Shown: in pieces, positions 3,936 to 31,681 of the stretch
How positions within the stretch are numbered: the first letter of the stretch is position 1
Layout of the letters: each line of letters begins with the position of its first letter
Source: Candidatus Saccharimonadota bacterium
GTDB taxonomy: Bacteria; Patescibacteriota; Saccharimonadia; Saccharimonadales; Saccharimonadaceae
Assembly (NCBI GenBank): GCA_027492465.1
Contig: JAPUET010000009.1
Span: 15,687-79,686 of the forward strand
Reading direction: 5' to 3'
Length of the DNA: 64,000 nucleotides
Program-made: the position numbers and the translations under genes
The notes under the pieces: generated by a model
The model's input: only the letters and a program-made list of their open reading frames with translations
Told to the model about the DNA's origin: nothing
The model's database searches: none

Positions 3936-4493
3936 ATGAAGCGGGTAACAAAGGCTCGATTGGCGGACGGGTTGCTGCGAGTACTTGTACTCGGATCGGT
4001 GACATCGGCGGCGCTCATTGCGCCCAACGGTTTGCAGCTGCTTGATAAACCTTTGCAGAAATTTATTGCCTCGCTCGATGAAAAAGAGCGAAAACGGAAG
4101 ATCGCCGAGGCGCTGGCGTACTTACGCTACCGCGGATTGGTGCAAGATGATTATCAGCATGGACTACGGTTAACGAAGAAGGCCGAGCATCGATTGCAAC
4201 AACAAGAGGTAGAAGCAATCTGCATTACCCCGGCCAAGCGCTGGGATGGCGTATGGCGAATTGTGTTTTTTGATATTCCCGAACCCATGAAAACGAAACG
4301 CGACCAGTTTGCCGCACGGCTAAAACATCTTGGGTTTGGCGTGCTACAACGAAGCGTATTCATTTGCCCACACCCCTGTAGAGATGAGGTGGTACAGCTT
4401 GCCCGATATTATGCCGTCGATCAGTACACAACATATATCGAAACCTCGTACATCGATAATGACACACCCCTTAAAGAGCATTTTGAGTTATAA
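3936..4493 (+). CDS. PaaX-like / Cas2-fold domain putative transcriptional regulator
   Basis: 185-aa ORF. The C-terminal half (WDGVWRIVFFDIPEPMKTKRDQFAARLKHLGFGVLQRSVFICPHP) matches the PaaX-type W-G-W..fdiPe..R..lr..L...GFg.l pattern. The N-terminal part looks like a winged helix. Confidence 0.6.
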   Translation: MKRVTKARLADGLLRVLVLGSVTSAALIAPNGLQLLDKPLQKFIASLDEKERKRKIAEALAYLRYRGLVQDDYQHGLRLTKKAEHRLQQQEVEAICITPAKRWDGVWRIVFFDIPEPMKTKRDQFAARLKHLGFGVLQRSVFICPHPCRDEVVQLARYYAVDQYTTYIETSYIDNDTPLKEHFEL

Positions 4494-4884: not shown

Positions 4885-5643
4885 CTATAAGTGAAGCTTG
4901 GCGAGTAATCTATCGATTGCGTCGGGGGTGATCTCTTTCATTGGCAGACGCGAAGCAAGCATATCTACCACTTGCTCGCCAATCTCTTCTGGAAAATAAA
5001 TTGCTTGGCTAATCTGAAATCGTTTACGCGGAATAAGCGCTACCGAATGATGCCCGGCGTGGCTCACAACGCCAAACGCCTTGAAAACGTCATAGGTATA
5101 CAGTTTGTCGTTTACATGGAGTCCTTTACGACTCAATGTATACTGAATCACCTCTGGTGGGCGACGGACATACATCACCAGCGCAAGCGCCATCACGGGC
5201 ACTAAAATAGCAAAAGTAATAGATTTTAGTACCACCACAGCTAATACGGCAGCAAGAACAGCGGCAATACCAAAGAAAATATACCATTTGACACTACGGG
5301 GGCTGTGAATATATTCAGTTCCTTCCCACCGTAATAGAGCGGTATCATCTTCGGAGGGATCGGATTGGATTATGGTCGGATCGGCAACTTGCTCACTGGT
5401 ATCTGGCTGGGTTTCTTCAGGTTGCACAGGCTCTTCTGGCAAAACGACCGGAGAGGGGTCTGTAGCTGGAGCTGTTGAGGCTACAGGTACGGCCGGTACT
5501 ACAGGAACTGCAGGTGGCACCTCGGGCATGGGTTGCGGCGGAACCGGAACAGGTTCGGCCGGCGCCTGATACGGAGCAGCCGAAGGGCTAGGCGTAGGTT
5601 GCTGCCACTGGTCGGCCGGGGGTTGTTGCTGATTGGGTTGCAT
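4885..5643 (-). CDS. hypothetical Pro/Gln-rich membrane protein
   Basis: 252-aa ORF. About 100 aa of N-terminal P/Q/A/V low complexity, then two adjacent TM helices (WYIFFGIAAVLAAVLAVVVL, ITFAILVPVMALALVMYV), then a roughly 90-aa C-terminal globular domain. Confidence 0.7.
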   Translation of the reverse strand: MQPNQQQPPADQWQQPTPSPSAAPYQAPAEPVPVPPQPMPEVPPAVPVVPAVPVASTAPATDPSPVVLPEEPVQPEETQPDTSEQVADPTIIQSDPSEDDTALLRWEGTEYIHSPRSVKWYIFFGIAAVLAAVLAVVVLKSITFAILVPVMALALVMYVRRPPEVIQYTLSRKGLHVNDKLYTYDVFKAFGVVSHAGHHSVALIPRKRFQISQAIYFPEEIGEQVVDMLASRLPMKEITPDAIDRLLAKLHL

Positions 5644-5685: not shown

Positions 5686-6099
5686 TTACTGTGTTGAAGA
5701 ACCGTAGTTTGTACTACTAGAGCTCGATGTACTAGAGAAGCTGTTGATAACAAAGTTAACAGCCGCATAGGCAAGAATTGCAACAATAATACCAACAAGC
5801 GCATAGAGAATGGTGTTTTTTGCCGCTTGGACTTGGGAGGCATCTCCACCAGAAATAACGTAGCGCAAGCCGCCGATTACAATCATAATTACCGCAATTG
5901 CGCCAACAATAAAGAGGAGAACGCTACTAATTTGTGAGAAAACGCCAGAATTACCAAATAAATCACCCGGCTGCTGGTCTGATCGTGCAGAACTAGCGCC
6001 ATCTGAAATATTGCCAAGAGCAAGTACCTGGGAAGCTCCGACTACGCTTACGCTGAGGGCAAGAACGGCAGTGATAATAAGTGGGACGATGCGCTTCAT
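5686..6099 (-). CDS. VirB2/TrbC-architecture T4SS pilin-like protein (paralogue 7, orphan)
   Basis: 137-aa ORF with signal peptide (VLALSVSVVGASQVLA). Core is TM1 + GGLRYVISGGDASQVQAAKNTILYALVGIIVAILAYAAVNFV, shared with the six paralogues at 8279-10657. SD (AAGGAG) lies upstream. Confidence 0.8.
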   Translation of the reverse strand: MKRIVPLIITAVLALSVSVVGASQVLALGNISDGASSARSDQQPGDLFGNSGVFSQISSVLLFIVGAIAVIMIVIGGLRYVISGGDASQVQAAKNTILYALVGIIVAILAYAAVNFVINSFSSTSSSSSTNYGSSTQ

Positions 6100-6896: not shown

Positions 6897-7559
6897 CTAA
6901 TCATCTAACGGCTGGGCGGCCGCCACGGCAACCCACACCTCTTTGGCGCCAGCGTCTAGTAGTGCTTTGGCCGCAGCATTAAGCGTAGAGCCAGTCGTGG
7001 TAATATCATCGATCACCAAATAATAGCCCGAACAGTTGGCGGCCATAAATGCTTGACTGGCCTGCCGCACACGTTGCTTGCGCGTTGCTCCGCGCTGAAT
7101 ACTATTGGTTTTACGCCGAAGGAGGGGAGTGTAACCAAGGCCGCGCAACTTGGCAAACTGGCGAGCTAGCAATACCGTTTGATCATATCCGCGCTGACGG
7201 ATATGTGGCGCTATAGTAGGTATCGGTACAATGATTACGTTAGTAGGTAATAGGGGAAGGGTTGAATGAAGCAGCTCGGCTAAAGGTTTATAGGCCGCCC
7301 GCGTACGCTCAAACTTATATCGGTTTAGGAGTTCTTTTAACCCTTCACTACGACTGCCCACACACCATGCCTTGGTGAACGAGGGCTTGCAACCTGTACA
7401 GATATTTTGCATGGGTAGGGTTAGTTTATGACATAAAATACATGCTTCGAACGGCTCACTAACGATGTTATATTTACAATGCTCGCATAGTAACTCGCCA
7501 ATACGCCCGCAAGAGCTACAGTAGTGAGGCGCGATAAGCTGTATGGGTGAAAACTGCAT
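6897..7559 (-). CDS. comF: ComF-family phosphoribosyltransferase-domain protein
   Basis: 220-aa ORF. N-terminal Cys-rich zinc-finger-like region (CSSCGRIGELLCEHCKYN ... CILCH ... CTGC). C-terminal PRTase motif YYLVIDDITTTGSTLNAAAKAL. Confidence 0.85.
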   Translation of the reverse strand: MQFSPIQLIAPHYCSSCGRIGELLCEHCKYNIVSEPFEACILCHKLTLPMQNICTGCKPSFTKAWCVGSRSEGLKELLNRYKFERTRAAYKPLAELLHSTLPLLPTNVIIVPIPTIAPHIRQRGYDQTVLLARQFAKLRGLGYTPLLRRKTNSIQRGATRKQRVRQASQAFMAANCSGYYLVIDDITTTGSTLNAAAKALLDAGAKEVWVAVAAAQPLDD

Positions 7560-8142: not shown

Positions 8143-8190
8143 TTATTACCTGCCGGGTAAGAAATACTGCTCCAGGAAACTGGGGCAATA

Positions 8191-8231
8191 TTTTTTTGGA
8201 TTAAGCCCCTAATCGGCTTAATCCAAAAAAA
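8191..8231. terminator. bidirectional rho-independent terminator (Hsp20 gene / pilin operon)
   Basis: Perfect 17-bp stem TTTTTTTGGATTAAGCC / GGCTTAATCCAAAAAAA with a 7-nt loop and T-runs on both strands. A second hairpin AGACTGTCACG/CGTGACAGTCT lies at 8233-8258. Confidence 0.8.
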
Positions 8232-8278
8232 TAGACTGTCACGGAATCGTGACAGTCTACCGAACCTAGAGACGGCTG

Positions 8279-8680
8279 CTATTCGCCGCCAACGAGACTC
8301 TTTACAACAAAGTCGACCGCTGCGTAGGCAAGAATTGCCACAACAAGACCAATGACAGAGTAAAGAATGGTGTTTTTGGCACTGGTTACCGCCGAGCTAT
8401 CGCCCTGCGACACTACATAGCGGAATCCGCCGATAATAAGCATGATCACTGAAACTGCACCAATAACAAACAAGAGCACTTTGGATACGGTTTCAAAGAT
8501 ACCGCCTTGGCCAAATAGTGAGCTTGGTTGTTCAGCACTTTTTGACGAGTTAACTCCGCCTCGTAAAGTAAGGTCGGCAGCCGGATCTTTAGCGGCAAAT
8601 ACCGGCGCTGCACTAACACTCAACACAAAGGCAGGTATTGCTAGAAGAGCAAGGAAGTGCTTTTTAATATTGATTTTCAT
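8279..8680 (-). CDS. VirB2/TrbC-architecture T4SS pilin-like protein (paralogue 1)
   Basis: 133-aa ORF. Signal peptide ending SVSAAPVFA. Core is VLLFVIGAVSVIMLIIGGFRYVVSQGDSSAVTSAKNTILYSVIGLVVAILAYAAVDFVV. Last gene of the pilin operon. Confidence 0.85.
   Translation of the reverse strand: MKINIKKHFLALLAIPAFVLSVSAAPVFAAKDPAADLTLRGGVNSSKSAEQPSSLFGQGGIFETVSKVLLFVIGAVSVIMLIIGGFRYVVSQGDSSAVTSAKNTILYSVIGLVVAILAYAAVDFVVKSLVGGE
8394..8437. repeat. 44-nt block identical to 8859-8902 (within pilin paralogues 1 and 2)
   Basis: GAGCTATCGCCCTGCGACACTACATAGCGGAATCCGCCGATAAT occurs exactly in both genes, while the flanking codons differ at synonymous and non-synonymous sites. Confidence 0.9.
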
Positions 8681-8752
8681 GTATCATAATTCCTTTCGTT
8701 TGATAGAACGTTTACCCTAGTTATAGCAGAAAGCGTGTGCGTTGTTAAGTAG

Positions 8753-9133
8753 TTAGGCGAACTGAGTGACAACAAAGTTAACAATTGCCCAAGCAAAGAT
8801 GGCCACTGCAAGGCCAATAACGGCGTAGAGGATAGTATTTTTAGCACTTGTAACGTTTGAGCTATCGCCCTGCGACACTACATAGCGGAATCCGCCGATA
8901 ATGATCATGATGACCGAAACCGCACCAATAAGATAAAGAAGTGCGTTCACAATTAACTTCACGATATCACCTGGTTTTGTTTGAGTGCCAGTACCACCAG
9001 TTGCATTAAGACCCTTGTTGACACAGTCTTTTGGAGTAGAGCATTGAGCGGCATAGGTAGCAGGCGCATAAGCCATTCCTGCAAGCCCCAAACTTACAAC
9101 AAAACTTGCCACTATAATTTTTATTTTTTTCAT
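8753..9133 (-). CDS. VirB2/TrbC-architecture T4SS pilin-like protein (paralogue 2)
   Basis: 126-aa ORF. Signal peptide (..GMAYAPATYA), Cys pair in the mature head (AAQCSTPKDCVNKG), conserved core GGFRYVVSQGDSSNVTSAKNTILYAVIGLAVAIFAWAIVNFV. SD AGGAG. Confidence 0.85.
   Translation of the reverse strand: MKKIKIIVASFVVSLGLAGMAYAPATYAAQCSTPKDCVNKGLNATGGTGTQTKPGDIVKLIVNALLYLIGAVSVIMIIIGGFRYVVSQGDSSNVTSAKNTILYAVIGLAVAIFAWAIVNFVVTQFA
8859..8902. repeat. 44-nt block identical to 8394-8437
   Basis: Exact copy of the block listed at 8394-8437. Confidence 0.9.
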
Positions 9134-9147
9134 TTTATTCTCCTGTC

Positions 9148-9513
9148 TTATGTAAAGAAGTTATTTACTAACGATATAATTGCCGCCGATAATAGCGCAA
9201 CAGCAAGACCAATAACGGCATAGAGGATAGTATTTTTAGCAGCCGTTACTTTACTGGAATCACCCGCAGAGACGGCATACATAAATCCTCCGATAATAAT
9301 AACAATAAAAGCAACTCCCGCCAAAATGATTAATGCCAAACTGACATAATTCCATACACCCTTTGATAGGTCGGTGTTTGATTTTACCAGCTTACATTGA
9401 CCAGCGTTGCTTGATTGGCAGGGAATGGTAAGCGCAGACGCAGAAGGGGCGAGTGCATAATTTATGGCAAAAAATCCCACAGCAACTAGTAGTCCAATAA
9501 AAAACTGTCGCAT
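9148..9513 (-). CDS. VirB2/TrbC-architecture T4SS pilin-like protein (paralogue 3)
   Basis: 121-aa ORF. Signal peptide (..ALAPSASA), Cys pair (IPCQSSNAGQCKLV), core GGFMYAVSAGDSSKVTAAKNTILYAVIGLAVALLSAAII. Confidence 0.85.
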   Translation of the reverse strand: MRQFFIGLLVAVGFFAINYALAPSASALTIPCQSSNAGQCKLVKSNTDLSKGVWNYVSLALIILAGVAFIVIIIGGFMYAVSAGDSSKVTAAKNTILYAVIGLAVALLSAAIISLVNNFFT

Positions 9514-9515
9514 TA

Positions 9516-9812
9516 CTATGAAGCTCCGCTTATAACTATGCTAGTAATTCCAAATGCCAGTAAAATCACTACAAGACCAATAACCGCTGAAAGAATAGCA
9601 TTTTTAGCCCGGGTAATAAGCTGTTGATTATTAGCCGAAACAACATACATAAATCCAGCAGCAACAATAACAATAACGGCTATTACCGCTGCCCAAAAAT
9701 ATACGGCGTTTAAAATATCTTTTAATTTAAAATCCGAAGCTGCAGGAATACCTGCGGTTTGCTGATTAATGAGTGCAGCAAAGTAAAAGAGGTGAGTATA
9801 GAGCATATTCAT
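9516..9812 (-). CDS. divergent T4SS pilin-like protein (paralogue 4)
   Basis: 98-aa ORF. Two hydrophobic helices separated by the loop FMYVVSANNQQLITRAKNAILSAVIGLVV. No Cys pair and only a weak signal peptide. Its start overlaps the upstream stop (ATGA). Confidence 0.75.
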   Translation of the reverse strand: MNMLYTHLFYFAALINQQTAGIPAASDFKLKDILNAVYFWAAVIAVIVIVAAGFMYVVSANNQQLITRAKNAILSAVIGLVVILLAFGITSIVISGAS

Positions 9813-10243
9813 AGTATACTCGCAATCGTGTTTATTATGGCCGCGGCCAGTAGTACAATAATTAACCCAATAATGGCGTTTGTGATGGTTTTCTTAGCGT
9901 CACTCATGCCATCTGAAGACCCAGCACTCAGCATGTACGTAAAGCCGCCTTTTATAATGAAGAATGCTGCAACATACGCCGCTATACCAAACCCCGCCTG
10001 TAGTACATTTAGTACTATTGTTGTAATGAATTTGCTCAGATCACCTTTACCACTGCCTGGCGATTTAATAACACAAGCTCCATCCTTTTTTTGCTCTTGT
10101 AGGCCACGGTACCACGGGGTGATCCCAAGAATTGGTGCATCGCTACATGCTGCTGCTGCGGGGATCGAAAAGACAACCGATGGCGCAATCATAGCCCCAG
10201 CAAGGCTTAAGATAACGAGTAGAGATGCAAGGAAGCGGCGCAT
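9809..10243 (-). CDS. divergent T4SS pilin-like protein (paralogue 5)
   Basis: 144-aa ORF. Signal peptide (..SVVFSIPAAAA), Cys pair (ACSDAP...DGACVIK), core GGFTYMLSAGSSDGMSDAKKTITNAIIGLIIVLLAAAIIN. AGGAGG SD. Confidence 0.8.
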   Translation of the reverse strand: MRRFLASLLVILSLAGAMIAPSVVFSIPAAAACSDAPILGITPWYRGLQEQKKDGACVIKSPGSGKGDLSKFITTIVLNVLQAGFGIAAYVAAFFIIKGGFTYMLSAGSSDGMSDAKKTITNAIIGLIIVLLAAAIINTIASIL

Positions 10244-10657
10244 TTAGAATATTCCTCCTGGAATTAACCACATAAGTACCACGCCCATGGCGGCAAATAT
10301 CACCAGACCGATAACTGTTTGTAACATAATATCTTTGGCTTTTTTGATCTGTTCACTGTTGCCCCCTGCGCCAGAATACATAATTCCCGCATACACAAAA
10401 GCGCCGATAGCCACGACACCTATACCGGCAGTAAGAACTCCTAATGCCCATTCTAAAATCATGAAAATCGCCGAGTTGCTAGAGTTAGCACGAGTTCCTT
10501 TTGGGGTGTCGTTATCGGCGGCAGCGCAAAAATTATTGTCTAAAATCGCGCAGGTGAGCTTCTCTTTTGCTATAGCTGGTTGAGCTGAGACAAAAATGGT
10601 AGCTACTAATGCGCTGAATATCAAGGAAATTGCAAGTATGGTACGTGTTGATTTCAT
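10244..10657 (-). CDS. divergent T4SS pilin-like protein (paralogue 6, first gene of operon)
   Basis: The ORF track gives 10244..10747. I prefer the internal ATG at 10657 (MKSTRTILAISLIFSALVATIFVSAQPAIA signal peptide). Cys pair (KLTCAILDNNFCAA), core AGIMYSGAGGNSEQIKKAKDIMLQTVIGLVIFAAMGVVL. Confidence 0.75.
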   Translation of the reverse strand: MKSTRTILAISLIFSALVATIFVSAQPAIAKEKLTCAILDNNFCAAADNDTPKGTRANSSNSAIFMILEWALGVLTAGIGVVAIGAFVYAGIMYSGAGGNSEQIKKAKDIMLQTVIGLVIFAAMGVVLMWLIPGGIF

Positions 10658-10762
10658 AATTTTACAATCTTTACCGCTACTAGTGTACCGCCCTAGGTGG
10701 GTAGCTGTAAAGCCATAGGTAAAAATCGTGCGGTTCTTACCGTACATTTTTTAGCATGAGCA

Positions 10763-10791
10763 TTGACTTTTTAAGATAAAAATGGTAAAAT
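10763..10791 (+). promoter_or_regulatory. sigma70-like promoter, apparently leaderless start of VirB6-like gene 1
   Basis: TTGACT (10763-10768), 17-nt spacer, TAAAAT (10786-10791). The ATG at 10801 is only 9 nt after the -10, and there is no SD. Confidence 0.45.
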
Positions 10792-10800
10792 GAATCAGAT

Positions 10801-13731
10801 ATGTGGGAACTGGCAAAAAGGCTCTCGCACGGTAGATATCCGCTGCGACGTTTTTCACTTGTGGTCATGAGCATGTTGATGGCCTTTTTTGTGGCAACAT
10901 TCGCCCTTTCCACCCCAGCCTACGCCGACGACGCCGAGCGCAACGGTACCACGATTTCTTACCAGGAAAATGAATACGCGGTTGCAAGTAGTACAGATAT
11001 GCCAAGTTCAAAACCCGCTCAAGCAAAATCTGCCTATTTTTACTTAGACTCAGCCGCAAATAAAGCCCATTTTATTTTTACCGAAGAAGTAGACCCTGCA
11101 AAAGCCGCAAAAGGTTACTACGTTGTTTACGACTACACGCCGCCCTCGAATTACAGCAACCCCTCACCCCCAACCGACGTTACATTTACTGCCGGAACAA
11201 GTGCCTCGACCTCTGATTGCGACAATCCGAACCTTACGGGAATTAGCTGGTGGGTGTGCCCAACCGTCAATGCACTTGCAAGCGGGATGGACTGGATTTA
11301 CGGCATTATTTCAAACTTTCTTGTCGTAAAAACCGTCACGGGCGATACAGATTCTGCAATTTATCAAATGTGGACAATTGTAAGAGATATTGCAAATATC
11401 TGTTTCGTTATTGCGATTATTGTAATTGTGTACTCTCAGATAACCAGTATCGGTCTGACGAATTACGGTATAAAACATACATTGTCGCGCCTTATTATCG
11501 CCGCGATACTCGTTAATATATCGTACTGGATCTGTGCGCTCGCGGTGGACGCCTCTAACGTCTTGGGCTACGGTATACATAGCCTGTTTATGGGTGTGCT
11601 CGGCCGACTCAGTGTAGGCGCAAATTATAGTGCGCTCGATCCTACATGGTCGAGTGTCGCCACCTGGGCGCTTGGAAGCGGTGCGGCGGTTGGTATCATA
11701 GCTTTCGCCGTTAACCCGGGAGCAATCTTTTTGCTTATACCTCTTTTACTCGGAGCTGTCACCGCGGCGCTTATTGCGTTGATTGTTCTTGCGGCCCGCC
11801 AAGCACTCATTACGGTGCTTATTATCGTCGCCCCACTTGCCTTTGTGGCCTATATTCTTCCAAATACCGAAAAATGGTTCACCAAATGGCGTGAAACATT
11901 TACAACCATGTTGTTGCTGTTTCCAATCTTTTCGGCAATATTCAGTGGCGCCCAGCTAACAGGTATGGCGATTATTCAAACAGCCGACGGCAATGCTATT
12001 ACCGTTATTCTTGGGTTAGCCGTGCAGGTTGCCCCAATTGTTGTTACGCCACTGCTCGTGAAGTTTAGCGGCAGCATAATTGGGCGCATTGCCGGCATGG
12101 TGAACAACCCAAACAAGGGATTAATTGATCGTTCACGCAAAATGGCCCAAGGGTGGGCTGATGAAACCAAAAAGCGTGCCCTCACTGGTCGAAATATCTC
12201 TGGCACTCTTGCTAAGCGAAAGGGGCTCGGGTGGCTTAATGCCCGCAACCGCGCCACTCAGGGTGTTGATAGTTTCTTCCGTAACCAAGAGGCGCGGCGC
12301 AAAAACCTTGATACTGGTGCCGAGAACCGTTTCGCAGCAACAAACATAGGCCAAAAACGCACCATTGAAGCAGGTAATTTGGGAGTTGATAAAACCGATA
12401 TCGAAACCAGGACCATGGATACCGAATCGGGTAGGGCACTCATGCATCGCCAGGGCATGTCAGAGGTGTATAAAACCAATATGCAGAATCGTTTTGGCGA
12501 ACACACCCTTGGTAAAGACCTTGATATGGAAAAACGAAAGGCCGAACAAAACAAAAAGCGTATTGAAAACGACCATCAAACACATTGGGATAATGCGGTT
12601 CGTACCGACGCCTCACTACTTGAACTAGACCTCAGTGTTAAAAAAAGCGAAAGCAGCGCGGCGCTCGCAAAAGAAAAACTCGAAAAAATGCACGCCGAAA
12701 TTGTCGCCCAGGGCCATAATTCTGAATATATCCTAAACCTACGCGGTATCGATGCGCACTCCCAGGGTACGATGCTCAACATTGCTCACGATTTGAACAA
12801 ACAGGCGATGGAAACAACCTTTGCAAAAGCCGCCAAGACAGAGGCAGAGCACGCACTTACCAGCGCTACAAATGATGTCTTGCTAAAGAACTCTATAAAG
12901 TTTGACGGTGTGGATGCACGAAAATATGCAGCTGGCATTGGTAGTGAAGCGGCCGTGCTTGCAAGCGCTGTGGCGCGCGAACGCAAAGAGTTTGGCGAGG
13001 CAGTCGGGTACCAAAAAGAACTGGCAAGTCACTTTAAGCTTAATGCCGGGCAGATTGAAGAGCTTGCTATGGCAAAGGGTAACGTAACGGTGACCGACGA
13101 TCATGGCAACTCACACACCTTTAGTGTCAACGATGATTACGCCCGTGATATGGCCGTAGAAGAAATCTTTACCGTCGGTTCACATGGCCAAAAGATGGCT
13201 GTGTTGAAATCGACCGGAGCAGGAGAAATCAACTACAGCAACCGACGCACCATTCAGCAGGCGGCTATTAAGAGTGGCTTTAGCAAAGCTGCGCCCGCAA
13301 TCAATGACAAAACGCTCGACGACATCATTAACGGTAGGTTTAAGGGCGACGAAAGCTGGCAGTACCATTCGCTACGCGAAGTACTTGAAGGACGCCTTAA
13401 CCCACAATCTCTCTCGACAGCCAATGTCGCCTCGCTTGAATTCCTATTTGCTGATCCGACCGATCCTAGCAACGCGCTTGCGGCCGCTCAGTTTAACCAA
13501 TTGCTTGCCGATTCAATTCCTGGCGAACTTGCCAACTTACGAAGAAGCAACCCTGCGGCAACCAACGCCGATGCAAGAGCAAGTCTTTTGGGCAAGTTTA
13601 ACGCTGAGCGCGATAAGCTACAACGCATGGCTGCCAGCGTACTCGATACGCCAACTATTCGTCAAAATACTAACGCTCAATCTGCCGACGAACTCAAGCG
13701 GTTTGCCGGAGGTTACTATACGGGCCCGTAG
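10801..13731 (+). CDS. TrbL/VirB6-like polytopic T4SS channel protein with long cytoplasmic tail (paralogue A)
   Basis: 976-aa ORF. Signal peptide (..STPAYA), about 130-aa exported head ending in ISWWVCP, roughly 6-7 TM helices (IANICFVIAIIVIVYSQITSIG.. to ..LAVQVAPIVVTPLLV), then about 540 aa of charged, coiled-coil-like tail. Confidence 0.8.
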   Translation: MWELAKRLSHGRYPLRRFSLVVMSMLMAFFVATFALSTPAYADDAERNGTTISYQENEYAVASSTDMPSSKPAQAKSAYFYLDSAANKAHFIFTEEVDPAKAAKGYYVVYDYTPPSNYSNPSPPTDVTFTAGTSASTSDCDNPNLTGISWWVCPTVNALASGMDWIYGIISNFLVVKTVTGDTDSAIYQMWTIVRDIANICFVIAIIVIVYSQITSIGLTNYGIKHTLSRLIIAAILVNISYWICALAVDASNVLGYGIHSLFMGVLGRLSVGANYSALDPTWSSVATWALGSGAAVGIIAFAVNPGAIFLLIPLLLGAVTAALIALIVLAARQALITVLIIVAPLAFVAYILPNTEKWFTKWRETFTTMLLLFPIFSAIFSGAQLTGMAIIQTADGNAITVILGLAVQVAPIVVTPLLVKFSGSIIGRIAGMVNNPNKGLIDRSRKMAQGWADETKKRALTGRNISGTLAKRKGLGWLNARNRATQGVDSFFRNQEARRKNLDTGAENRFAATNIGQKRTIEAGNLGVDKTDIETRTMDTESGRALMHRQGMSEVYKTNMQNRFGEHTLGKDLDMEKRKAEQNKKRIENDHQTHWDNAVRTDASLLELDLSVKKSESSAALAKEKLEKMHAEIVAQGHNSEYILNLRGIDAHSQGTMLNIAHDLNKQAMETTFAKAAKTEAEHALTSATNDVLLKNSIKFDGVDARKYAAGIGSEAAVLASAVARERKEFGEAVGYQKELASHFKLNAGQIEELAMAKGNVTVTDDHGNSHTFSVNDDYARDMAVEEIFTVGSHGQKMAVLKSTGAGEINYSNRRTIQQAAIKSGFSKAAPAINDKTLDDIINGRFKGDESWQYHSLREVLEGRLNPQSLSTANVASLEFLFADPTDPSNALAAAQFNQLLADSIPGELANLRRSNPAATNADARASLLGKFNAERDKLQRMAASVLDTPTIRQNTNAQSADELKRFAGGYYTGP

Positions 13732-13756
13732 ACTTTTACTAACAGAATGTTGGCCT

Positions 13757-16447
13757 TTATGGACGAGGTCCTCTTCCGGCGTAATAGTCTAGCCATGCAC
13801 GGTTATTTCCTATATTCTTACTAATCTCATGGCTTCCAAGAGCATCCTGAGCACGGTCACGCATAGGAGTAGGGACGGTTCCTCCGTTTGAATCTGCAAC
13901 GTACTGCAGCTCCTCATTAGAGGTTTTTGAGATTGACTCAGCAGAATAGCGACCGACCCCCACCTGAGCCTGGGTTTCCAAGTGTAAAGAATTACCGCTC
14001 ATATCTACATTACTGCCCTCGCGCAAGCTTTGTAGAGACCCTTGTCCGATAAAGCCCGGTTTAGCATTCGATCTTGCAGTTGCATTTGCCACGATTCGTT
14101 TTGTCTCTTTACTATTTCTATCATCTCCACCATCAACTACAGAGTTCCATGACGCCTGCGCCCCTTCGTAATCTCCGCGCGTGAACTGCTCGGTAATAGC
14201 GGCTGCACGCATTGCGGAATCTTTTCCATTTATACCTTTAATACTCTCGCCGTTTGCGACTTGTCGTAATTCCGCCCGCGTAAGGTTCGCCTGTTCAATT
14301 TGCGCACGCGAGGCTTCAACGTTCTCTGCCTCAAGCTTATTCACAATTTGTGCCGCCTGTTGTGCGGTACGCGTCCCCAATTGACCAGTGATAGAGCTTG
14401 AATTAAGACGCTTATTCACGCCACTTGCAGCGCGTGCTACTAGGCCTTTTCCTTGATACACGCCACCTTGTATCTGGGCCCTTTTAATCTGCTGATTACG
14501 GTCCCACGCCTTCTTGTACGCGCCTAATTGAGAATGTTCGCCAACGTTTTTACGAACCATTTGTCTCGACTTATCTGCCCAACCACTTAACTTTGCCCCA
14601 AAATCACCAAATCCATCGTTTGCTTTCTGCAGGGCTTTTGGCACTACAAAGAAGGGGAGTGCCGCCACACCTAGTGCGGCCCACTGCAGCACGTTGTTGC
14701 CAGTCTTACCTGCCACATCGTTAAGAATATTCGCCGCCAAGGCACTGGCTCCAAAAATGACCGCAATAATGGGAAAGAGCACCAATAAAGAAACGAACGC
14801 TTTGCGCCACTTTTTAAACCACTCTTCCGTATTTGGTAGCAAATAGGCCACAAAGGCAAGCGGGGCTATAGCTACCAGTAACACAATCAGGGCCTGGCGA
14901 GCAATGAGTATTAGTACTATCATAGCGATTGCCAAAAAGGTTGAAAGCAGTACAGGCACGCTTAGCGCCAGAAATAAAACCCCAGCACCCGCAATGGCTG
15001 CTACCGTTACTCCAGTATAAGTAAGCCCAGTTCCAACACTGAACTGGGATGAGTCAGAAGGAGTGTCACCTATGCTAATGGTATTCACGAAAAAGTGACT
15101 TAAACCGTATCCTAAGATATTACTAACATCCACCGCAAGCTGACATATAATAAACGATGTATTTACCAATAATGCCGCCACGACAATGCGTGGCAACATA
15201 CGCTTAATGCCATAATTACTAATACCAATTGAGGTAATTTGTGAATACACTACAAAAAGTAGGGCAATCACAAAACAAATATTCGCAACGTCGCGAAACT
15301 TCGACCAAGCGTCATTGGCATTCTTTACAAGATTAGGGTCGACACTTAAAAAATTACTTGCAAGAAAGCTATACGCTGCGTCGTTTATACCGGCAACGAA
15401 TGTAAGCGCAGGGCATATAAGCCAACCAACCCCTTCAATGGTGCAGGTGGGCGTGTCTTCGTCGGCGCAGGTTTTAGTTTCCTCGTTCCAGGTGGGACTG
15501 TTTTCATTACAGTCGTCAGATCGATCCGTAGCAGCACTGCTCGTTACGGCATTTTCTGGGTTTTTATTATTCCATTCGGCAATCGACCCCGCCATACCGT
15601 TTATCTTCTCTAGTAGTTTTTCGCATGTCGTACTCTGTCCATCCCAGTCGTAGTTATCGATAGGATATTTAGCCCTATTGGCAATAGATTGCGTATTAGT
15701 AAACTCTACCTCAACATCTTTAGTTATAAATTTACCCGCTTTTGCAGGATCTTCAATGACTTGCTTGTAAGTAGCTTTAGCGCCTTTGCCCGTAGGTGGT
15801 ATTGAGAGATTGCATGTTGCGCTAAGAATACGGATATAATTATAATATTGCGCGGCACTAATTTGCTGATTCTTATCAACTATATCGTTAGCCGTGTCTC
15901 TGTCATTTACACGGTTATAGATATTTAGGGTTGCATTATAGAACCCTGTTGAGCACTGGCCATTACTAATGGTGCCGTCACATTTTTTAATTTCTTTTGT
16001 ACTTTGCTGGTAGCCAATCTTTAATAAATAGTCACCGACAGAGCTAAATCCAAGCGACTGAAGGGCAGTGTTTACTTTATCGCCGTCATTACAATTTGTA
16101 CGACCACTGTCTGGCTGGAACCACATACCTATACTTACACCCGTAGGGCTAACGCCAGTGGTACCAGCAAGCATTTGGTCTGCAGAGCCTTCAGGAATGG
16201 ATTTTTTAGCATCTCCCTTCTGAGCAAGACAGTCACGTAAGAAACGTGCACCATAATACCTGTCGTTAATCGGACCAAGAAAACTAGCTGCATCCGCCGA
16301 AGCAGGAGTGGGGGCAAAAAGTTGTACAACCGTAGCCAGCATAAATACCACTGCCACTAGGGGCATAGTCCACCGGCTATGCTTTTTTATTGTAACCATA
16401 ACTGGTATACATTGTGGCATACACCCATCGAATATACCAGCCTCCAA
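13757..16447 (-). CDS. TrbL/VirB6-like polytopic T4SS channel protein with Cys-rich exported head (paralogue B)
   Basis: 896-aa ORF (alternative start M17 at 16399). The TM core is clearly paralogous to 10801-13731 (VANICFVIALLFVVYSQITSIGISNYGIKRMLPRIVVAALLVNTSFIICQLAVDVSNILGYG). The exported head is about 330 aa with about 12 Cys. The cytoplasmic tail is about 300 aa. Confidence 0.8.
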   Translation of the reverse strand: MEAGIFDGCMPQCIPVMVTIKKHSRWTMPLVAVVFMLATVVQLFAPTPASADAASFLGPINDRYYGARFLRDCLAQKGDAKKSIPEGSADQMLAGTTGVSPTGVSIGMWFQPDSGRTNCNDGDKVNTALQSLGFSSVGDYLLKIGYQQSTKEIKKCDGTISNGQCSTGFYNATLNIYNRVNDRDTANDIVDKNQQISAAQYYNYIRILSATCNLSIPPTGKGAKATYKQVIEDPAKAGKFITKDVEVEFTNTQSIANRAKYPIDNYDWDGQSTTCEKLLEKINGMAGSIAEWNNKNPENAVTSSAATDRSDDCNENSPTWNEETKTCADEDTPTCTIEGVGWLICPALTFVAGINDAAYSFLASNFLSVDPNLVKNANDAWSKFRDVANICFVIALLFVVYSQITSIGISNYGIKRMLPRIVVAALLVNTSFIICQLAVDVSNILGYGLSHFFVNTISIGDTPSDSSQFSVGTGLTYTGVTVAAIAGAGVLFLALSVPVLLSTFLAIAMIVLILIARQALIVLLVAIAPLAFVAYLLPNTEEWFKKWRKAFVSLLVLFPIIAVIFGASALAANILNDVAGKTGNNVLQWAALGVAALPFFVVPKALQKANDGFGDFGAKLSGWADKSRQMVRKNVGEHSQLGAYKKAWDRNQQIKRAQIQGGVYQGKGLVARAASGVNKRLNSSSITGQLGTRTAQQAAQIVNKLEAENVEASRAQIEQANLTRAELRQVANGESIKGINGKDSAMRAAAITEQFTRGDYEGAQASWNSVVDGGDDRNSKETKRIVANATARSNAKPGFIGQGSLQSLREGSNVDMSGNSLHLETQAQVGVGRYSAESISKTSNEELQYVADSNGGTVPTPMRDRAQDALGSHEISKNIGNNRAWLDYYAGRGPRP

Positions 16448-16492: not shown

Positions 16493-17356
16493 CTACGAGT
16501 TTTCGGGTGCCTTACTTATGAAAGATGTGGGTTTCATCGTTTTATCTTTAGTATCGTAATGTAGCCCCTTTAGGATTCCCCGGTAAAGTCCTGGGTCCTG
16601 TACTGCAACAGGGTGCTTCAGTCCAAGACTATTGGTAAGCATCTCAGCCATATCTGCATCAATAGTGTCCTGTATCGTATACTCGAACTCTGCGCCATCC
16701 GATGTTGCCTTAACATCTTTAATGGTATGTGTAACTCGATATTCTGGCACGTTGAGACCCTGCTCGCGAGCAAAATGCACGATCCACGCTGCGTTTACGT
16801 AACTATGTATACCGTTATCGCCCTTGGTATCGAATTCACCAATAAGCTGCCGAAGGGCTGGCTGAATTTTTTTGAACATCATCTCGGTAAAGTCGTTAGA
16901 TGTAACTGCGTTACTGCCACCCATCTCGTTACCCTCAATTGCTCGCCACTTTTCTAGGTTTTTGCTTGATCCTATTGAGTTAAGGAGCTTATCCTCAATC
17001 TCTGGATAGTATTTCTCGGCCCACTCTTCTGGCGAAGTACCTTCCGGAACTCGGGTAGCCTCCATTATGCCCCTTGGCGTCATATCATAGATTGCTTCCG
17101 ATGTAAGATTGGGAAACATTTCTGGTTTTTGACTCGATGTTTCGGGTGCTGAAGGCGGTACGTTTTCACTTGGGCTGGCTGCTTGGGGGTTATTTGGAGA
17201 TGCACAGCTCGCTAAAAGAAAACCAGCTGTCGTTCCTAAAATCATTGTACGACGACTAACTAGGGGTTCGCTTGTATCTGTATCTGTATCTGTAATTGAA
17301 TTGGTCGGTTCGGTCGGTTCGCCGCCGGGTTTACGCCGAAAAAATGATAGTGCCAT
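16493..17356 (-). CDS. putative secreted lipoprotein (twin-arginine-like signal)
   Basis: 287-aa ORF. Contains ...VSRRTMILGTTAGFLLASCASP (RR motif, hydrophobic region, lipobox LASC). Short tandem repeats encode TDTDTDT and EPTEPT. Co-oriented with and 45 nt downstream of VirB6-like B. Confidence 0.7.
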   Translation of the reverse strand: MALSFFRRKPGGEPTEPTNSITDTDTDTSEPLVSRRTMILGTTAGFLLASCASPNNPQAASPSENVPPSAPETSSQKPEMFPNLTSEAIYDMTPRGIMEATRVPEGTSPEEWAEKYYPEIEDKLLNSIGSSKNLEKWRAIEGNEMGGSNAVTSNDFTEMMFKKIQPALRQLIGEFDTKGDNGIHSYVNAAWIVHFAREQGLNVPEYRVTHTIKDVKATSDGAEFEYTIQDTIDADMAEMLTNSLGLKHPVAVQDPGLYRGILKGLHYDTKDKTMKPTSFISKAPENS

Positions 17357-17475
17357 AATGGATTGATTCTCCTTGTAGTAGCTGTGAGTTATTTCTATTC
17401 GCTACGGATTATATTAAAAACCATTTATGTTTATGCTCTTTATTATATCAAACATTAGCGAAAATGTCAATATGC

Positions 17476-17513: not shown

Positions 17514-18503
17514 ATGGCAGTCTATAAGGTGGCGCAGGATGTCGAGGCGGACGATAAATTAATCGGGCCGTTTAGTTTTCGCCAGTTTATTTACCTTATT
17601 ATTGTAGCGATTTCGATTCTTATTGGGTGGGGGTTAGCGCATTTGTTTGTATTGCTGGCAATCTTGCCACTACCGGTTATTGTGTTTTTTGGCGCACTAG
17701 CTCTACCGCTTCGTAAAGATCAGCCAATGGAAGTGTATATGGCTGCGCTCGTTTCGTTTTATCTAAAGCCACGTAAGCGCCTATGGATACCAGACGGCAT
17801 AGAGTCGCTCATTGAAATCACTGCTCCAAAGGTAGTGGAAGTACGGCGTGTGAAGGATATTGATGAACTAGAGGCAGAGCGGCGACTTTCGTACCTTGCC
17901 GATATTGCCGATACTCGCGGGTGGGCGGTTCGTCATGCGGCACAGCCAATGGCGGAGAGCTCGATGATAAGCGACGCGTATTTTGAAGCACAGCAAGCAC
18001 CCGATGTACTCGATAGCAATAGCGGAGTGGCTCAGTCATTTAATGCAATGATAAACGAAGCAGATGCCAAGCGACGTAAAGAGGCGACAGAACGTATGCA
18101 TAGCATTGCCGTGCCGTCGCGACCAGAGGCTCAGGTAAGTACACCTGCTCCTCAGACAGTTCCTCAACCTCAGCCACAGCCGCAAATGCAACTGCAAACA
18201 CCGGCGGCGAGCGACGATTCAACTGGCCTACATCCGCTTTACAATCCGTATCCAAGTTCGATTCATCAATCTGTTATTCAGCCGCTCGGAGCGTCGGGGC
18301 GAGTGCCTGGGCACTTGAACGATCCTGCAAAGACTGAGAATCCGACAGAATCTCCCGCAACTACTAGCGAAAAACAGATTTCACCTGATATAATTAATCT
18401 TGCAAGCAATACCGATTTATCGATAGAGACGATTCAACACGAGGCACACCGTATCCAGCAAAAAGCTGAAGACGACGGCGAAGTGTTTGTACCGCTTCGA
18501 TAA
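17514..18503 (+). CDS. PrgI/VirB3-like T4SS membrane protein with long P/Q-rich C-terminal extension
   Basis: 329-aa ORF. The N-terminus (VAQDVEADDKLIGPFSFRQFIYLIIVAISILIGWGL + second TM) fits the PrgI-family pattern found next to VirB4 in monoderm T4SSs. The C-terminal ~200 aa is low complexity (PQPQPQPQMQLQTP). Confidence 0.7.
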   Translation: MAVYKVAQDVEADDKLIGPFSFRQFIYLIIVAISILIGWGLAHLFVLLAILPLPVIVFFGALALPLRKDQPMEVYMAALVSFYLKPRKRLWIPDGIESLIEITAPKVVEVRRVKDIDELEAERRLSYLADIADTRGWAVRHAAQPMAESSMISDAYFEAQQAPDVLDSNSGVAQSFNAMINEADAKRRKEATERMHSIAVPSRPEAQVSTPAPQTVPQPQPQPQMQLQTPAASDDSTGLHPLYNPYPSSIHQSVIQPLGASGRVPGHLNDPAKTENPTESPATTSEKQISPDIINLASNTDLSIETIQHEAHRIQQKAEDDGEVFVPLR

Positions 18504-18534: not shown

Positions 18535-19410
18535 GTGCCACCAAACACGCAACAAGCCAATCAAATGCAGCCGCAACCAAGTGTCGGTATGCCTGGGCCA
18601 GAACAGCAGTTTGTTCCGCCTACCCAAATGCCAGCCGCCCAGCCAGCAGGAAGTGCTCAAGGCAATCAAAAGCCAGTAGAGCGAAAGGCTAATTCAACCC
18701 AAAACTCACTACTCTTAAGCGAGCTACGTGACAGCATGGTAATTATGGCTGACGGTAGTTTTCGAGCAGTAATTGCGTGTAAATCGATCAACTTTGACCT
18801 TATGAGTTCGCGTGAACGCGAGGGTGTAGAATTTAGCTACCAAAATTTCTTGAACGCCCTGTACTTTCCGGTACAGATTTTTATTCGTTCACAGCGGGTT
18901 GATATTGGGCCGTACCTGGATAAGCTGGAAGAGACTCGTCGCGGACAAGATAATATGCTTTTGAATGTGCTAATGGACGATTATATTGGGTTTATTGACG
19001 CACTTGCACAAGAGGCGAATATTATGGATAAAAGCTTTTTTATCGTGGTACCGTTTTTTCCGGCCGGCGACGTAGCAAATGTTGTTGAGCAGGGTAAGGG
19101 CTTCTTTACCAAGATACTTGGGGGTGGCGCACCTGTAAATCCTATAACAAAAATCGATAAAGCCTCGTATGAAAAAGCGAAGGAAGAGATTAAGAACCGA
19201 GTTGATGCCGTGATGAGCGGACTTATGCAGGTAGGAGTGCAGTCGATGCAATTGAACACAAAACAGCTTGGGGAGTTGTATTACAACGTGTATAACCCCG
19301 ATACGGCCGTGCGTGAACCACTGGGTGACTTTTCAAATGTAACATCAACCTATGTACGGAAGGCTGAACCGGCACCAACCGAAGTGGCACCGACAGGGGG
19401 TAATGCATAA
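18535..19410 (+). CDS. VirB4 N-terminal-domain-like protein (separate ORF)
   Basis: 291-aa ORF with about 60 aa of P/Q-rich N-terminus. It then has LSELRDSMVIMADGSFRAVIACKSINFDLMSSREREGVEFSYQNFLNALYFPVQIFIRSQRVDIGPYL, resembling the CagE/TrbE/VirB4 N-domain. Its stop overlaps the next start (TAATG). Confidence 0.6.
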   Translation: MPPNTQQANQMQPQPSVGMPGPEQQFVPPTQMPAAQPAGSAQGNQKPVERKANSTQNSLLLSELRDSMVIMADGSFRAVIACKSINFDLMSSREREGVEFSYQNFLNALYFPVQIFIRSQRVDIGPYLDKLEETRRGQDNMLLNVLMDDYIGFIDALAQEANIMDKSFFIVVPFFPAGDVANVVEQGKGFFTKILGGGAPVNPITKIDKASYEKAKEEIKNRVDAVMSGLMQVGVQSMQLNTKQLGELYYNVYNPDTAVREPLGDFSNVTSTYVRKAEPAPTEVAPTGGNA

Positions 19411-21251
19411 TGGCAAAGAAACTTGACCCGATTGATATTGCAGCTCAACAGCGTGCCCGCGAACAGGCCGAGGTAGAGCAAGCCTTTCTAAAGGGCATGA
19501 CGACGCTGCGCGACCTCATTGCGCCGAGTAGCCTCGAGATCCACAGCAGCCACTTTAGGGTTGGTACAAAGTACGGTCGAACATTATATATTTACGGATA
19601 CCCGCGAGAACTCTATACCGGTTGGCTTTCGGGGCTCATTAATATTGATCAGGTGATCGATATTAGTATGTTTATTTACCCCGTAGAAACAGAGGTAGTG
19701 CTAAATAATCTTCGCAAGAAGGTAACGCAGCTCGAAGCTGATATGAGCATTTTAAACGATAAGGGCCGAACACGCGATCCCGCAAAAGAAGCCGCGCTGG
19801 CAGATGCCGAGGAACTACGCGACCAACTACAGGTGGGCGCAGAGCGATTCTTCCGTTATGGCTTATATGTAACTATTTATGCCGATAGCCTGGAAGAGCT
19901 TGGGTTTGTGCAGCACGCTATTGAAACGCTATTTGGCCAGCAACTGGTATATAGCAAAGTCGCCTCGAGCCAGCAAGAGCAAGGGCTTAATAGTACGATT
20001 CCGCAAATGGCCGACCAATTGCAAATTCGTCGTAACATGAATACCGGTGCTATTAGTACGAGTTTTCCATTTACCAGTGCCGACTTAACTCAAGAAAAGG
20101 GCGTGTTATATGGCATAAATATGCACAATAACGGCTTGGTGATTTTTGACCGCTACAGCTTAGAGAACGCCAACATGGTAGTATTCGCAAAGTCGGGTGC
20201 CGGTAAGTCGTTTACCGTGAAACTTGAGGCGCTGCGCAGTATGATGCTCGGTGCTGATATTTTGATTATCGACCCAGAAAACGAATATCAGAAACTGAGC
20301 GATGCGGTAGGGGGCAGTTATATTCGCCTTAGCCTTAATAGTGATACGCGTATTAATCCGTTTGATTTACCACAGGTTATTGATAGCGACGAGGCTGATG
20401 ATGCGCTGCGAGCGAACCTCGTAACTCTGCATGGATTGCTACGTTTGATGTTGGGCGGGAGCCAGATGGCGGCGAATGGCCAGCTAATGGCTGGTCTCAC
20501 ACCCGCCGAAGAAGCCGATCTTGACCAAGGATTGATTGACACCTACGCGCGCGTGGGTATTACCAGCGACCCGCTAACACATAACTCTACACCGCCAACA
20601 ATTAGCGATTTATATGACACATTGCTCCATATGGGCGGAACCGGCCCACAACTGGCGCAGCGACTCCGTAAATACACCAGCGGGACGTTTGCGGGAATCT
20701 TTAGCCAGCAGAGTAATATCGATATTAATAACAATATGGTGGTGTTTAATATTCGCGACCTTGAGGACGAACTGCGCCCCGTGGCGATGTATATTGTGCT
20801 CTCGCATATCTGGAATATTACCCGCACAGTGAAAAAGAAGCGTATGTTGATTGTGGACGAGGCATGGCAACTAATGAAATATGACGACAGCGCAAACTTT
20901 TTATTCAGCCTCGCTAAACGCGCTCGAAAATACGCTCTTGGTCTTACTACCATTACCCAAGACGTTGAAGATTTCATGGGAAGCAAGATGGGGCGCGCAA
21001 TTGTCGCGAACAGTTCAATGCAGTTACTGCTAAAACAATCTTCGAGTGCAGTGGATGTGCTTGCTGATATTTTCAAGCTTACTGAAGAGGAGCGAAAACG
21101 GCTTGCCAACTTCCCGGTTGGGCAGGGGTTGTTCTTTGCCGGGCAAAACCATGTACATATTCAAATTATTGCCAGCCAGACAGAAACGGAACTTATTACT
21201 ACCAACCCGCAAACGGCGCTCACCCAAGGACAACAAGGTACAGGAGCCTAG
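19410..21251 (+). CDS. virB4: VirB4-family T4SS ATPase
   Basis: 613-aa ORF. Walker A VVFAKSGAGKSFTVK, Walker B KKRMLIVDEAWQL, TTITQDVEDF. The N-terminal part (YGRTLYIYGYPRELYTGWLSGLI) is like monoderm VirB4 (PrgJ/TcpF type). Confidence 0.92.
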   Translation: MAKKLDPIDIAAQQRAREQAEVEQAFLKGMTTLRDLIAPSSLEIHSSHFRVGTKYGRTLYIYGYPRELYTGWLSGLINIDQVIDISMFIYPVETEVVLNNLRKKVTQLEADMSILNDKGRTRDPAKEAALADAEELRDQLQVGAERFFRYGLYVTIYADSLEELGFVQHAIETLFGQQLVYSKVASSQQEQGLNSTIPQMADQLQIRRNMNTGAISTSFPFTSADLTQEKGVLYGINMHNNGLVIFDRYSLENANMVVFAKSGAGKSFTVKLEALRSMMLGADILIIDPENEYQKLSDAVGGSYIRLSLNSDTRINPFDLPQVIDSDEADDALRANLVTLHGLLRLMLGGSQMAANGQLMAGLTPAEEADLDQGLIDTYARVGITSDPLTHNSTPPTISDLYDTLLHMGGTGPQLAQRLRKYTSGTFAGIFSQQSNIDINNNMVVFNIRDLEDELRPVAMYIVLSHIWNITRTVKKKRMLIVDEAWQLMKYDDSANFLFSLAKRARKYALGLTTITQDVEDFMGSKMGRAIVANSSMQLLLKQSSSAVDVLADIFKLTEEERKRLANFPVGQGLFFAGQNHVHIQIIASQTETELITTNPQTALTQGQQGTGA

Positions 21252-28756: not shown

Positions 28757-28761
28757 AGCTA

Positions 28762-29862: not shown

Positions 29863-30140
29863 AATAGTATTATCCTTTTTTAAATGAATTGGTTGTGATG
29901 ATTATAGGTACTGTGGAAAGTGGGGATAGTTGGGAGTGCAACAGAGACAAAAGTGCAGTACGGGCTGTGGAAATGAGTGTCGATAGATGAGTGGACTCAG
30001 TGAGGGAAAGTCGAGTAATTATCCACGTATATTCAGACGGCTGACGGCGGGTAGTAAAAAATGGGGAAGAGTGAGCACATTTTTTACCCGCATCTTTTCG
30101 CAGGTTTTGCACGAAATTTCCACAGATCAATTGAGTAAGG

Positions 30141-31505: not shown

Positions 31506-31552
31506 CCATCTCCCTCTCTTTAGACTATCTTCTATGATAGCGATATTTCGAG

Positions 31553-31681
31553 TTTTCCACAACCGTGCAAGTGTTGTGGATTTTTACCTCTACACTACCC
31601 GCAAGACAGAGGTTGAATTTATCCACAAACAGCATCTACATCTGTTAAAACTGTGGATAAAAAAGCCCCCAGTGTGGATAA
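31553..31681. promoter_or_regulatory. oriC DnaA-box cluster (dnaA-rpmH intergenic)
   Basis: Perfect boxes: TTATCCACA at 31619-31627, and TGTGGATAA at 31652-31660 and 31673-31681. Near-consensus boxes: TTTTCCACA at 31553-31561 and TGTGGATTT at 31575-31583. Confidence 0.8.

Follow-up and report, generated by a model that had tools for sequence, protein, structure and literature searches.

A conserved array of six putative VirB2-like pilin genes at the type IV secretion locus of a Saccharimonadota bacterium

Why would a single secretion locus keep six different pilin genes side by side? The question is raised by the genome of a Candidatus Saccharimonadota bacterium (assembly GCA_027492465.1), of which we analyzed a stretch of 64,000 nucleotides, hereafter called the window (contig JAPUET010000009.1, positions 15,687 to 79,686). 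An earlier note, made from the letters of this stretch alone, had described six consecutive open reading frames (ORFs) on its minus strand, at 8279-10657, as an operon of diverged pilin paralogues of a type IV secretion system (T4SS); all six are present there. We think it fairly likely that these genes are a conserved array of VirB2-like pilins belonging to a chromosomal, origin-proximal T4SS, and that they provide non-redundant subunits of a pilus or conduit by the mechanism proposed below. Arrays of six pilins have already been described for Saccharimonadia. The window thus adds a further example, not a system of a new kind, and the suggestion that such a multi-pilin set would be unusual is superseded by what has been published for this bacterial class.

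The genes of the array are lettered A to F from its 3' to its 5' end, so that F is array position 1 and A is position 6; a solo seventh pilin, G, stands apart from them. All seven match the Pfam family PF18895 (T4SS_pilin), six of them above its curated cut-off of 26.6 bits and F just below it. The genes, with lengths in amino acids (aa), notes on cysteines (Cys) and PF18895 scores, are:

10244-10657, minus strand: pilin F, array position 1, 137 aa; ORF with a signal peptide, a head with CAILDNNFC, a helical hairpin and the C-terminal sequence WLIPGGIF; 25.3 bits, below the cut-off
9809-10243, minus strand: pilin E, array position 2, 144 aa; ORF, head with two Cys 24 residues apart; 38.1 bits, E=1.6e-9
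9516-9812, minus strand: pilin D, array position 3, 98 aa; ORF, headless, without Cys and without a canonical signal peptide; 30.5 bits, E=3.8e-7
9148-9513, minus strand: pilin C, array position 4, 121 aa; ORF, head with PCQSSNAGQC; 35.4 bits, E=1.1e-8
8753-9133, minus strand: pilin B, array position 5, 126 aa; ORF, head with QCSTPKDC; 48.1 bits, E=1.2e-12
8279-8680, minus strand: pilin A, array position 6, 133 aa; ORF without Cys; 34.1 bits, E=2.9e-8
5686-6099, minus strand: solo seventh pilin G, 137 aa; ORF with a Ser-rich C-terminal tail; 36.9 bits, E=3.9e-9

Aligned to each other, the seven proteins have a common hairpin of two hydrophobic helices and a short polar loop. An AlphaFold2 model of pilin A, made with 19 homologues (A has more than 3000), is also a hairpin, with helices at residues 61-90 and 95-130 (predicted local distance difference test, pLDDT, 81-90; mean pLDDT 72.5). 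Identity between paralogues of the array is 24-48%, and the only residues invariant across the seven window pilins are G85, Y88, A101, K102 and G111 (numbering of A). To place the family more broadly we used an alignment, A3, of 144 pilins, comprising the seven of the window (F included) and 137 from relatives. Every one of the 144 matches PF18895 at E<=0.01. At the same threshold 42 of them match the TrbC/VirB2 family PF04956 (cut-off 27.9 bits), with a best E-value of 1.9e-6, and there are matches to DUF6112 in 31 and to DUF4134 in 3. A kinship to PF04956 at the superfamily level, and at that level only, is plausible from these profile matches. The VirB2-like pilin identity put forward in the earlier note is thus borne out by PF18895 in all seven proteins, by PF04956 in 42/144 and by the T4SS genes nearby. 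Its description of a signal peptide, a head and a hairpin in each gene applies as far as the hairpin goes; it fails for D, which lacks a basic n-region and has essentially no head. Likewise, the long loop motif that it had proposed appears cleanly in A, B, C and G; D, E and F have degenerate forms of it.

Are the six genes interchangeable, or does each have a place of its own? Starting from the orthologue alignment of pilin A, we went to 80 loci of species-representative genomes and scanned their ORFs with a profile made from the seven window pilins; with the window itself the set comprises 81 loci. In this survey of copy number, which the earlier note had suggested, 65 of the 81 loci proved to have a tandem row of exactly six pilins whose lengths follow a conserved pattern, a recurrence well beyond what chance would give. 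Gene 3 has about 98 aa in every case, which is also the median length of position 3 across genomes. A solo seventh pilin lies within the flanks of 43 of the 65 six-gene arrays and makes up a separate orthologous group. For 382 of the 390 array genes, the best foreign match is at the same array position (65/65 at position 1 and 65/65 at position 2), and this is still so for 327 of the 390 when the targets are limited to genomes with less than 55% identity at position 6. Positions 1, 2, 3, 5, 6 and 7 remain separate at long distances. The median cross-genome identity of pilin A (position 6), 55%, is the highest of the array. Judged by these sequence comparisons, the paralogues belong to ancient orthologous groups whose order is fixed, and are not lineage-specific expansions.

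The close relatives are all metagenome-assembled genomes (MAGs) of Saccharibacteria/Saccharimonadia, among them a public MAG contig (GCA_032229805.1, locus L001) that is 99.2% identical to window positions 8161-15181. Three further loci with typical Saccharimonadia pilin arrays come from MAGs labelled Acidobacteriota, Verrucomicrobiia and Magnetospirillaceae (L002, L009 and L033); these contigs are probably mis-binned.

The positions differ most visibly in their heads. In the window, B, C, E and F have exactly two Cys each, as the earlier note had counted, and all of them are in the N-terminal head; no Cys is present in A, D and G, nor in the core of any window pilin. We counted Cys conservation in per-position alignments, with 58-63 distinct orthologues for positions 1, 2 and 4. 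The pair is conserved at 100%/100% at position 1 (63 orthologues) and at 100% and 95% at position 2. At position 4, the first Cys is conserved at 97% and the second at about 96%, the latter as 62% plus 34% in a neighbouring alignment column. Such conservation, 95-100% at three positions, supports the earlier idea of disulfide-constrained heads. The pair is found in just 35-40% of the orthologues of position 5, Cys pairs vary between species at positions 5 and 6, and the orthologue alignments of positions 3 and 7 have no Cys pair. Positions 1 and 2 also have motifs of their own: C-x-[IV]-L-P-x-x-[FI]-C in the head and WLIPGG[VI]F at the C-terminus (window 10244-10270) for position 1, and P-[AW]-W-Y-x-G-L between the two Cys (window 10090-10120) for position 2. 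The C-terminal motif of gene 1 (F) and the motif of gene 2 (E) are candidate interaction surfaces. We considered reading the first Cys of E as that of a lipoprotein and rejected it: residues -3 to -1 are not lipobox-like and the second Cys is 95% conserved.

The comparison of heads with cores, which the earlier note had also suggested, points to constraint in both. Relative to the closest relative, locus L082, whose proteins are 94-100% identical to the window pilins, the ratio of nonsynonymous to synonymous substitution rates (dN/dS, Nei-Gojobori) is 0.086 for heads, 0.059 for cores and 0.28 for signal peptides. In comparisons with the more distant loci L083, L002 and L003, dS is saturated and only dN is usable; at these larger distances it is 0.31-0.40 in heads and 0.18-0.20 in cores, which means that heads change about 1.7-2 times faster at the amino-acid level. 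On these estimates, heads and cores are both under purifying selection. Because of the positional orthology, the Cys conservation and the purifying selection, we exclude decaying copies and disfavour interchangeable antigenic variants. The cores of the neighbours A and B (8330-8466 and 8796-8931) share a 137-nucleotide (nt) tract of about 83% nucleotide identity, and both read GGFRYVV. Among the species examined, position-6 orthologues elsewhere read GGIRYT (or GGVRYT), except for the nearest relative (P0002/L082). This suggests a possible local gene conversion between A and B.

How are the six genes expressed? In the window, the stop of F abuts the start of E (10243/10244), E and D share an ATGA overlap (9809-9812), D and C are separated by a 2-nt gap (9514-9515), C and B by 14 nt, with AGGAG 8 nt before the ATG of B, and B and A by 72 nt. 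The first three junctions are as the earlier note had described them. Whether there is an ATGA overlap turns on which start is taken for D: gene callers applied to relatives take an ATG 6 nt downstream, which gives a protein of 96 aa. Across arrays, the median spacing from gene 1 to gene 6 is -4, -1, -4, 14 and 79 nt. In every array the first four genes are coupled, and the larger spacer is always the one before the last gene. The conserved overlapping or abutting genes, the purifying selection and the orthologues scored essential, described below, agree with co-expression, as the earlier note had argued, and not with decay or switching. Three candidate signals were found around the array:

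10682-10711, minus strand: candidate primary promoter of the array, TTTACA, 18 nt, TACACT, from a consensus scan
8720-8748, minus strand: candidate internal promoter of pilin A, TTAACA, 17 nt, (TGc)TATAAC, of the extended -10 type
8230-8261, minus strand: hairpin resembling an intrinsic terminator, after pilin A, with a 14-bp stem of which 6 pairs are G-C, followed by TTTTT

Upstream of the array, TTTACA/TTGCA followed by TACACT/TATACT is kept 25-30 nt before the MK start codon of gene 1 in diverse genomes. The longest ORF for F starts at 10747, and this start was rejected in favour of 10657 because the promoter-like motif is conserved at that distance and its -10-like TACACT lies inside the extension. 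Nearly all relatives (loci L002-L080) have kept the motif AAAAGTCAAT (window 10757-10768) upstream of the array; on the opposite strand it forms the TTGACT -35 of a promoter-like site (10763-10791, plus strand) for the divergent VirB6-like gene listed below.

The spacer between positions 5 and 6 has a signal of its own. The motif TTAACA-N17-TATA[AT][AC], whose -10 is preceded at a distance of one base by an invariant TG, occurs in the spacer of 47 of the 64 arrays, always with the 17-nt spacing, against an expectation of about 0.004 for each spacer; in the arrays scanned, neither position 1 nor position 7 has it upstream. Within the 64-kb window the extended -10 motif has two sites only, 8748-8720 and 17470-17442. 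The second is a perfect consensus, TTGACA-17-TGaTATAAT (17442-17470, minus strand), in the divergent region between the VirB8-like and PrgI/VirB3 genes, before the VirB8-like and TrbL_3 genes. The motif before A suggests that this pilin is expressed separately and more strongly. The array is then probably made of five coupled genes and one separately promoted gene, and the description of a simple six-gene operon gives way to this arrangement.

Genes of a T4SS adjoin the array. On its two sides are:

10801-13731, plus strand: extended VirB6/TrbL-like membrane protein, 976 aa, with a weak TrbL match, divergent from the array
13757-16447, minus strand: second TrbL_3-like protein, from a TrbL_3 match on the L082 orthologue
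16493-17356, minus strand: VirB8-like gene, assigned by position
17514-18503, plus strand: PrgI/VirB3 protein, from Pfam
19410-21251, plus strand: VirB4-like ATPase, from Pfam
21255-24395, plus strand: VanY-domain protein, from Pfam
24371-26377, plus strand: lysozyme/amidase protein, from Pfam
27713-31562: recF, dnaN and dnaA, the array being about 20 kb from dnaA
7666-8142: Hsp20, downstream of the array
6897-7559: ComFC, downstream of the array

T4SS core genes and cell-wall hydrolases are thus found within 17 kb of the array. For the divergent VirB6/TrbL-like gene, TrbL_3 (PF19590) is matched by the L001 product, which has the same length of 976 aa, and by the orthologues of L082 and L083. 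The layout of six pilins, divergent VirB6-like gene, Hsp20 and ComFC is repeated in L082 and L083. The solo pilin G, with the Ser/Gly-rich tail typical of position 7, has SSTSSSSSTNYGSSTQ in this tail, and its orthologues end in YG[AT]STR or GGTNV. Directly downstream of it is a 252-aa ORF without Pfam match (4885-5643, minus strand); a solo pilin followed by a gene of 242-252 aa also occurs in L082 and L083, and the two may be a conserved pair. Further along, 3936-4493 (plus strand) encodes a 185-aa protein that matches a PaaX central, Cas2-like domain (E=9e-25) and, weakly, CRISPR_Cas2.

The closest described counterpart is the T4SS locus of Southlakia epibionticum ML1, cluster SEML1_0006-0019 (Wang et al. 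2023, Cell; PMC10633639). There, SEML1_0014-0019 are six PF18895 genes of 399, 558, 312, 381, 384 and 417 nt, each scored GD/ES/ES, i.e., essential, by transposon insertion sequencing (Tn-seq) in one host pairing, and they are followed by Hsp20 (SEML1_0020) and ComFC (SEML1_0021) (PMC10633639). Gene order and sizes in the window match SEML1_0006-0021: the T4SS genes are ordered as SEML1_0006-0012, the VirB6/TrbL-like gene at 10801-13731 is the positional counterpart of SEML1_0013, and both loci have a divergent VirB6-like gene upstream of the array, Hsp20 then ComFC downstream, a solo seventh pilin and an adjoining dnaA. The pilins are of 132/185/103/126/127/138 aa in S. epibionticum and of 137/144/98/121/126/133 aa in the window, gene 2 being shorter in the latter. 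On the basis of synteny, gene count and gene size, the window array corresponds one-to-one to SEML1_0014-0019, although the two are from different species and were likened by gene order, count and size, not by sequence. Pilin A is the positional counterpart of SEML1_0019, which is annotated 'pilin' and scored essential (PMC10633639). The solo pilin of S. epibionticum, SEML1_0024, tolerates insertions and is non-essential (PMC10633639); it is on the strand opposite to its array, whereas in the window both are on the same strand. It adjoins an STT3/PglB-like glycosyltransferase, which hints at glycosylation of the solo-pilin tail.

The other known systems are more distant. A survey of Patescibacteria found 441 VirB2 arrays of 2-11 genes in 383 assemblies, with a mean identity within arrays of 25%, and suggested a role in host adaptation (Quinonero-Coronel et al. 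2025, Microb Genom; PMC12102498). As in the window, these arrays are near virB4 and near the replication origin, lack a relaxase and are abundant in Saccharimonadia (PMC12102498). The survey stressed variability and host-range versatility, whereas our analysis of the window brings out positional orthology, invariant Cys pairs and purifying selection. In Nanosynbacter lyticus TM7x, the corresponding genes were first called 'six putative effector genes'; the array is transcribed, and three of the six genes rise in stable symbiosis. It was later reclassified as VirB2 pilins (PMC12102498). The classical VirB2/TrbC/TraA pilins (PF04956) are likewise small, with a leader peptide and a two-helix hairpin with a short loop, and are encoded with VirB3, VirB4 and VirB6. 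They differ in that one major pilin goes with a VirB5 tip, whereas the window has six paralogues and no recognisable VirB5, a single-membrane envelope, no protein at the PF04956 cut-off and no sign of cyclisation. PrgF of pCF10, which a recent report describes as a VirB2-like pilus protein of Gram-positive bacteria (ter Beek et al., bioRxiv 10.64898/2025.12.18.695078), is a small two-helix protein of a single-membrane T4SS that belongs to the same broad class, beside VirB6 (PrgH), VirB3 (PrgI), VirB4 (PrgJ) and a lysozyme (PrgK). In contrast to the window pilins it has 75 aa and neither signal peptide nor head, and only one candidate per plasmid models as a pilus. An hhalign comparison of alignment A3 with PrgF (one sequence) was in register at helix 1 and the loop, and not significant (probability 3%, E=0.014, 38 columns). 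Finally, Anaplasma and Bartonella are host-associated bacteria that also have several tandem divergent virB2 copies, read as antigenic or host-interaction variants (cited in PMC12102498); unlike these, the copies of the window are ancient, fixed in order and constrained.

How might six such proteins work together? The proposal that follows builds on what we observed: the family and the genomic context of the proteins, their orthology by array position, the conserved Cys pairs, the purifying selection and the promoter-like motifs. Five of the six pilins would be exported by their Sec signal peptides, and all six would be inserted in the membrane as two-helix hairpins, with head and C-terminus outside and a short basic loop inside. 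The external heads of F, E, C and B would each be stapled by one disulfide. F, E, D, C and B would be transcribed as a tightly coupled group from a promoter located in the divergent region that they share with the VirB6-like gene, and the second conserved promoter just before A would raise the expression of this gene, making A the major subunit, as it probably is. From what is known of the family, the VirB4 ATPase and the VirB6-like platform would extract the pilins from the membrane, a pilus or conduit would be assembled through the wall towards the host bacterium, and this structure may help to obtain material from the host. F, E, D and C, as minor paralogues, would have places that are fixed and non-redundant, for instance at initiation, tip or base. 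We put forward only tentatively, as something possible, the more specific arrangement in which one heteromeric T4SS pilus or conduit has A, boosted from its own promoter, as its major subunit, with the disulfide-stapled F, E and C and the headless D in VirB5-like initiation, tip or adaptor roles.

Several observations weigh against the reading of the array as a pilus or conduit of non-redundant subunits. No T4SS pilus has been reported for any Patescibacterium, and the role of the T4SS is called 'completely unknown' in the field. None of the window proteins reaches the PF04956 cut-off, D alone matching the family (18.3 bits, E=0.0028). A Foldseek search of the A model against the Protein Data Bank (PDB) gave no match at E<=0.001; it gave only generic helical hairpins such as ATP synthase subunit c, a chemoreceptor and CHMP4B, all at E>1, a two-helix hairpin being too simple to discriminate. 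When PDB sequences were searched with a profile from the pilin A alignment, no pilin was found, only a chance signal-peptide match (E=0.13). Over large evolutionary distances, position 4 does not separate cleanly from position 5, and many of the 64 comparison genomes are closely related, so that our counts overstate the number of independent observations. Both array promoters are predicted sequence motifs, and polar effects on the last gene could be the reason why the upstream genes were scored essential by Tn-seq. Some of these points would suit what we regard as the main rival, namely that the proteins are pilin-like parts of a membrane- or wall-spanning channel without filament, as in a channel role of VirB2, or unrelated small membrane proteins that were co-opted. 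The lack of a reported pilus, the structure and PDB searches without specific match to solved pilins and the hhalign result with PrgF would all fit it. Set against this are the presence of PF18895 in all members, the repeated sub-threshold matches to TrbC/VirB2 and DUF4134 among relatives and the predicted disulfide-stapled heads, kept over long distances, which suggest exposed, load-bearing or recognition surfaces; PrgF-type Gram-positive proteins are moreover reported to form pili (bioRxiv 10.64898/2025.12.18.695078). We regard this rival as unlikely, while giving it real weight.

Under the Bartonella/Anaplasma model, the six would be alternative, functionally equivalent pilins serving host-range adaptation or surface variation (PMC12102498). 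The divergence within arrays (24-48% identity in the window, 25% on average in the survey; PMC12102498), the faster change of heads and the Cys pairs of positions 5 and 6, present in some species and absent from others, speak for such variation. Yet copy number and order are fixed in ancient orthologous groups, the head dN/dS of 0.086 indicates purifying selection, positions 1-3 have features of their own (sequence motifs at 1 and 2, and at 3 a short form without head), and all six orthologues were scored essential in one host pairing (PMC10633639). The genes are also translationally coupled, and no switching elements were noticed, though no specific search for them was made. We consider alternative pilins rather improbable, and the sequence evidence favours one machine with six distinct parts over such variable schemes. 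The original reading of the TM7x genes, as Sec-secreted effectors delivered to the host, could appeal to the N-terminal signal peptides of five of the six pilins, to the adjoining T4SS and to the 'six putative effector genes' of the TM7x literature, half of which rise in stable symbiosis. It is very improbable in our view: two long hydrophobic helices after the signal peptide and the match to a pilin family imply membrane retention and not soluble release, and the TM7x array has been reclassified as VirB2 pilins (PMC12102498). As for one functional gene among decaying duplicates, a possibility that the earlier note had itself raised, we found nothing in its favour other than the low identity between paralogues. 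Every ORF is intact, dN/dS lies at 0.06-0.09, 65 species-level genomes have kept each of the paralogues and the orthologues were scored essential (PMC10633639), which makes decay barely conceivable.

Saccharibacteria are very small epibionts of other bacteria. Their T4SS is essential if they are to grow on the host, and the six-pilin array is the feature that sets it furthest apart from other single-membrane T4SSs. What our analysis adds is incremental: the pilins are orthologous by array position, three subunits have near-invariant Cys pairs, selection is purifying, and a conserved promoter motif precedes the last gene. The residues, motifs and promoter named here are testable in S. epibionticum, which is genetically tractable. 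If the heteromeric pilus is true, it would be the first multi-pilin T4SS filament, and one essential for the epibiotic lifestyle.

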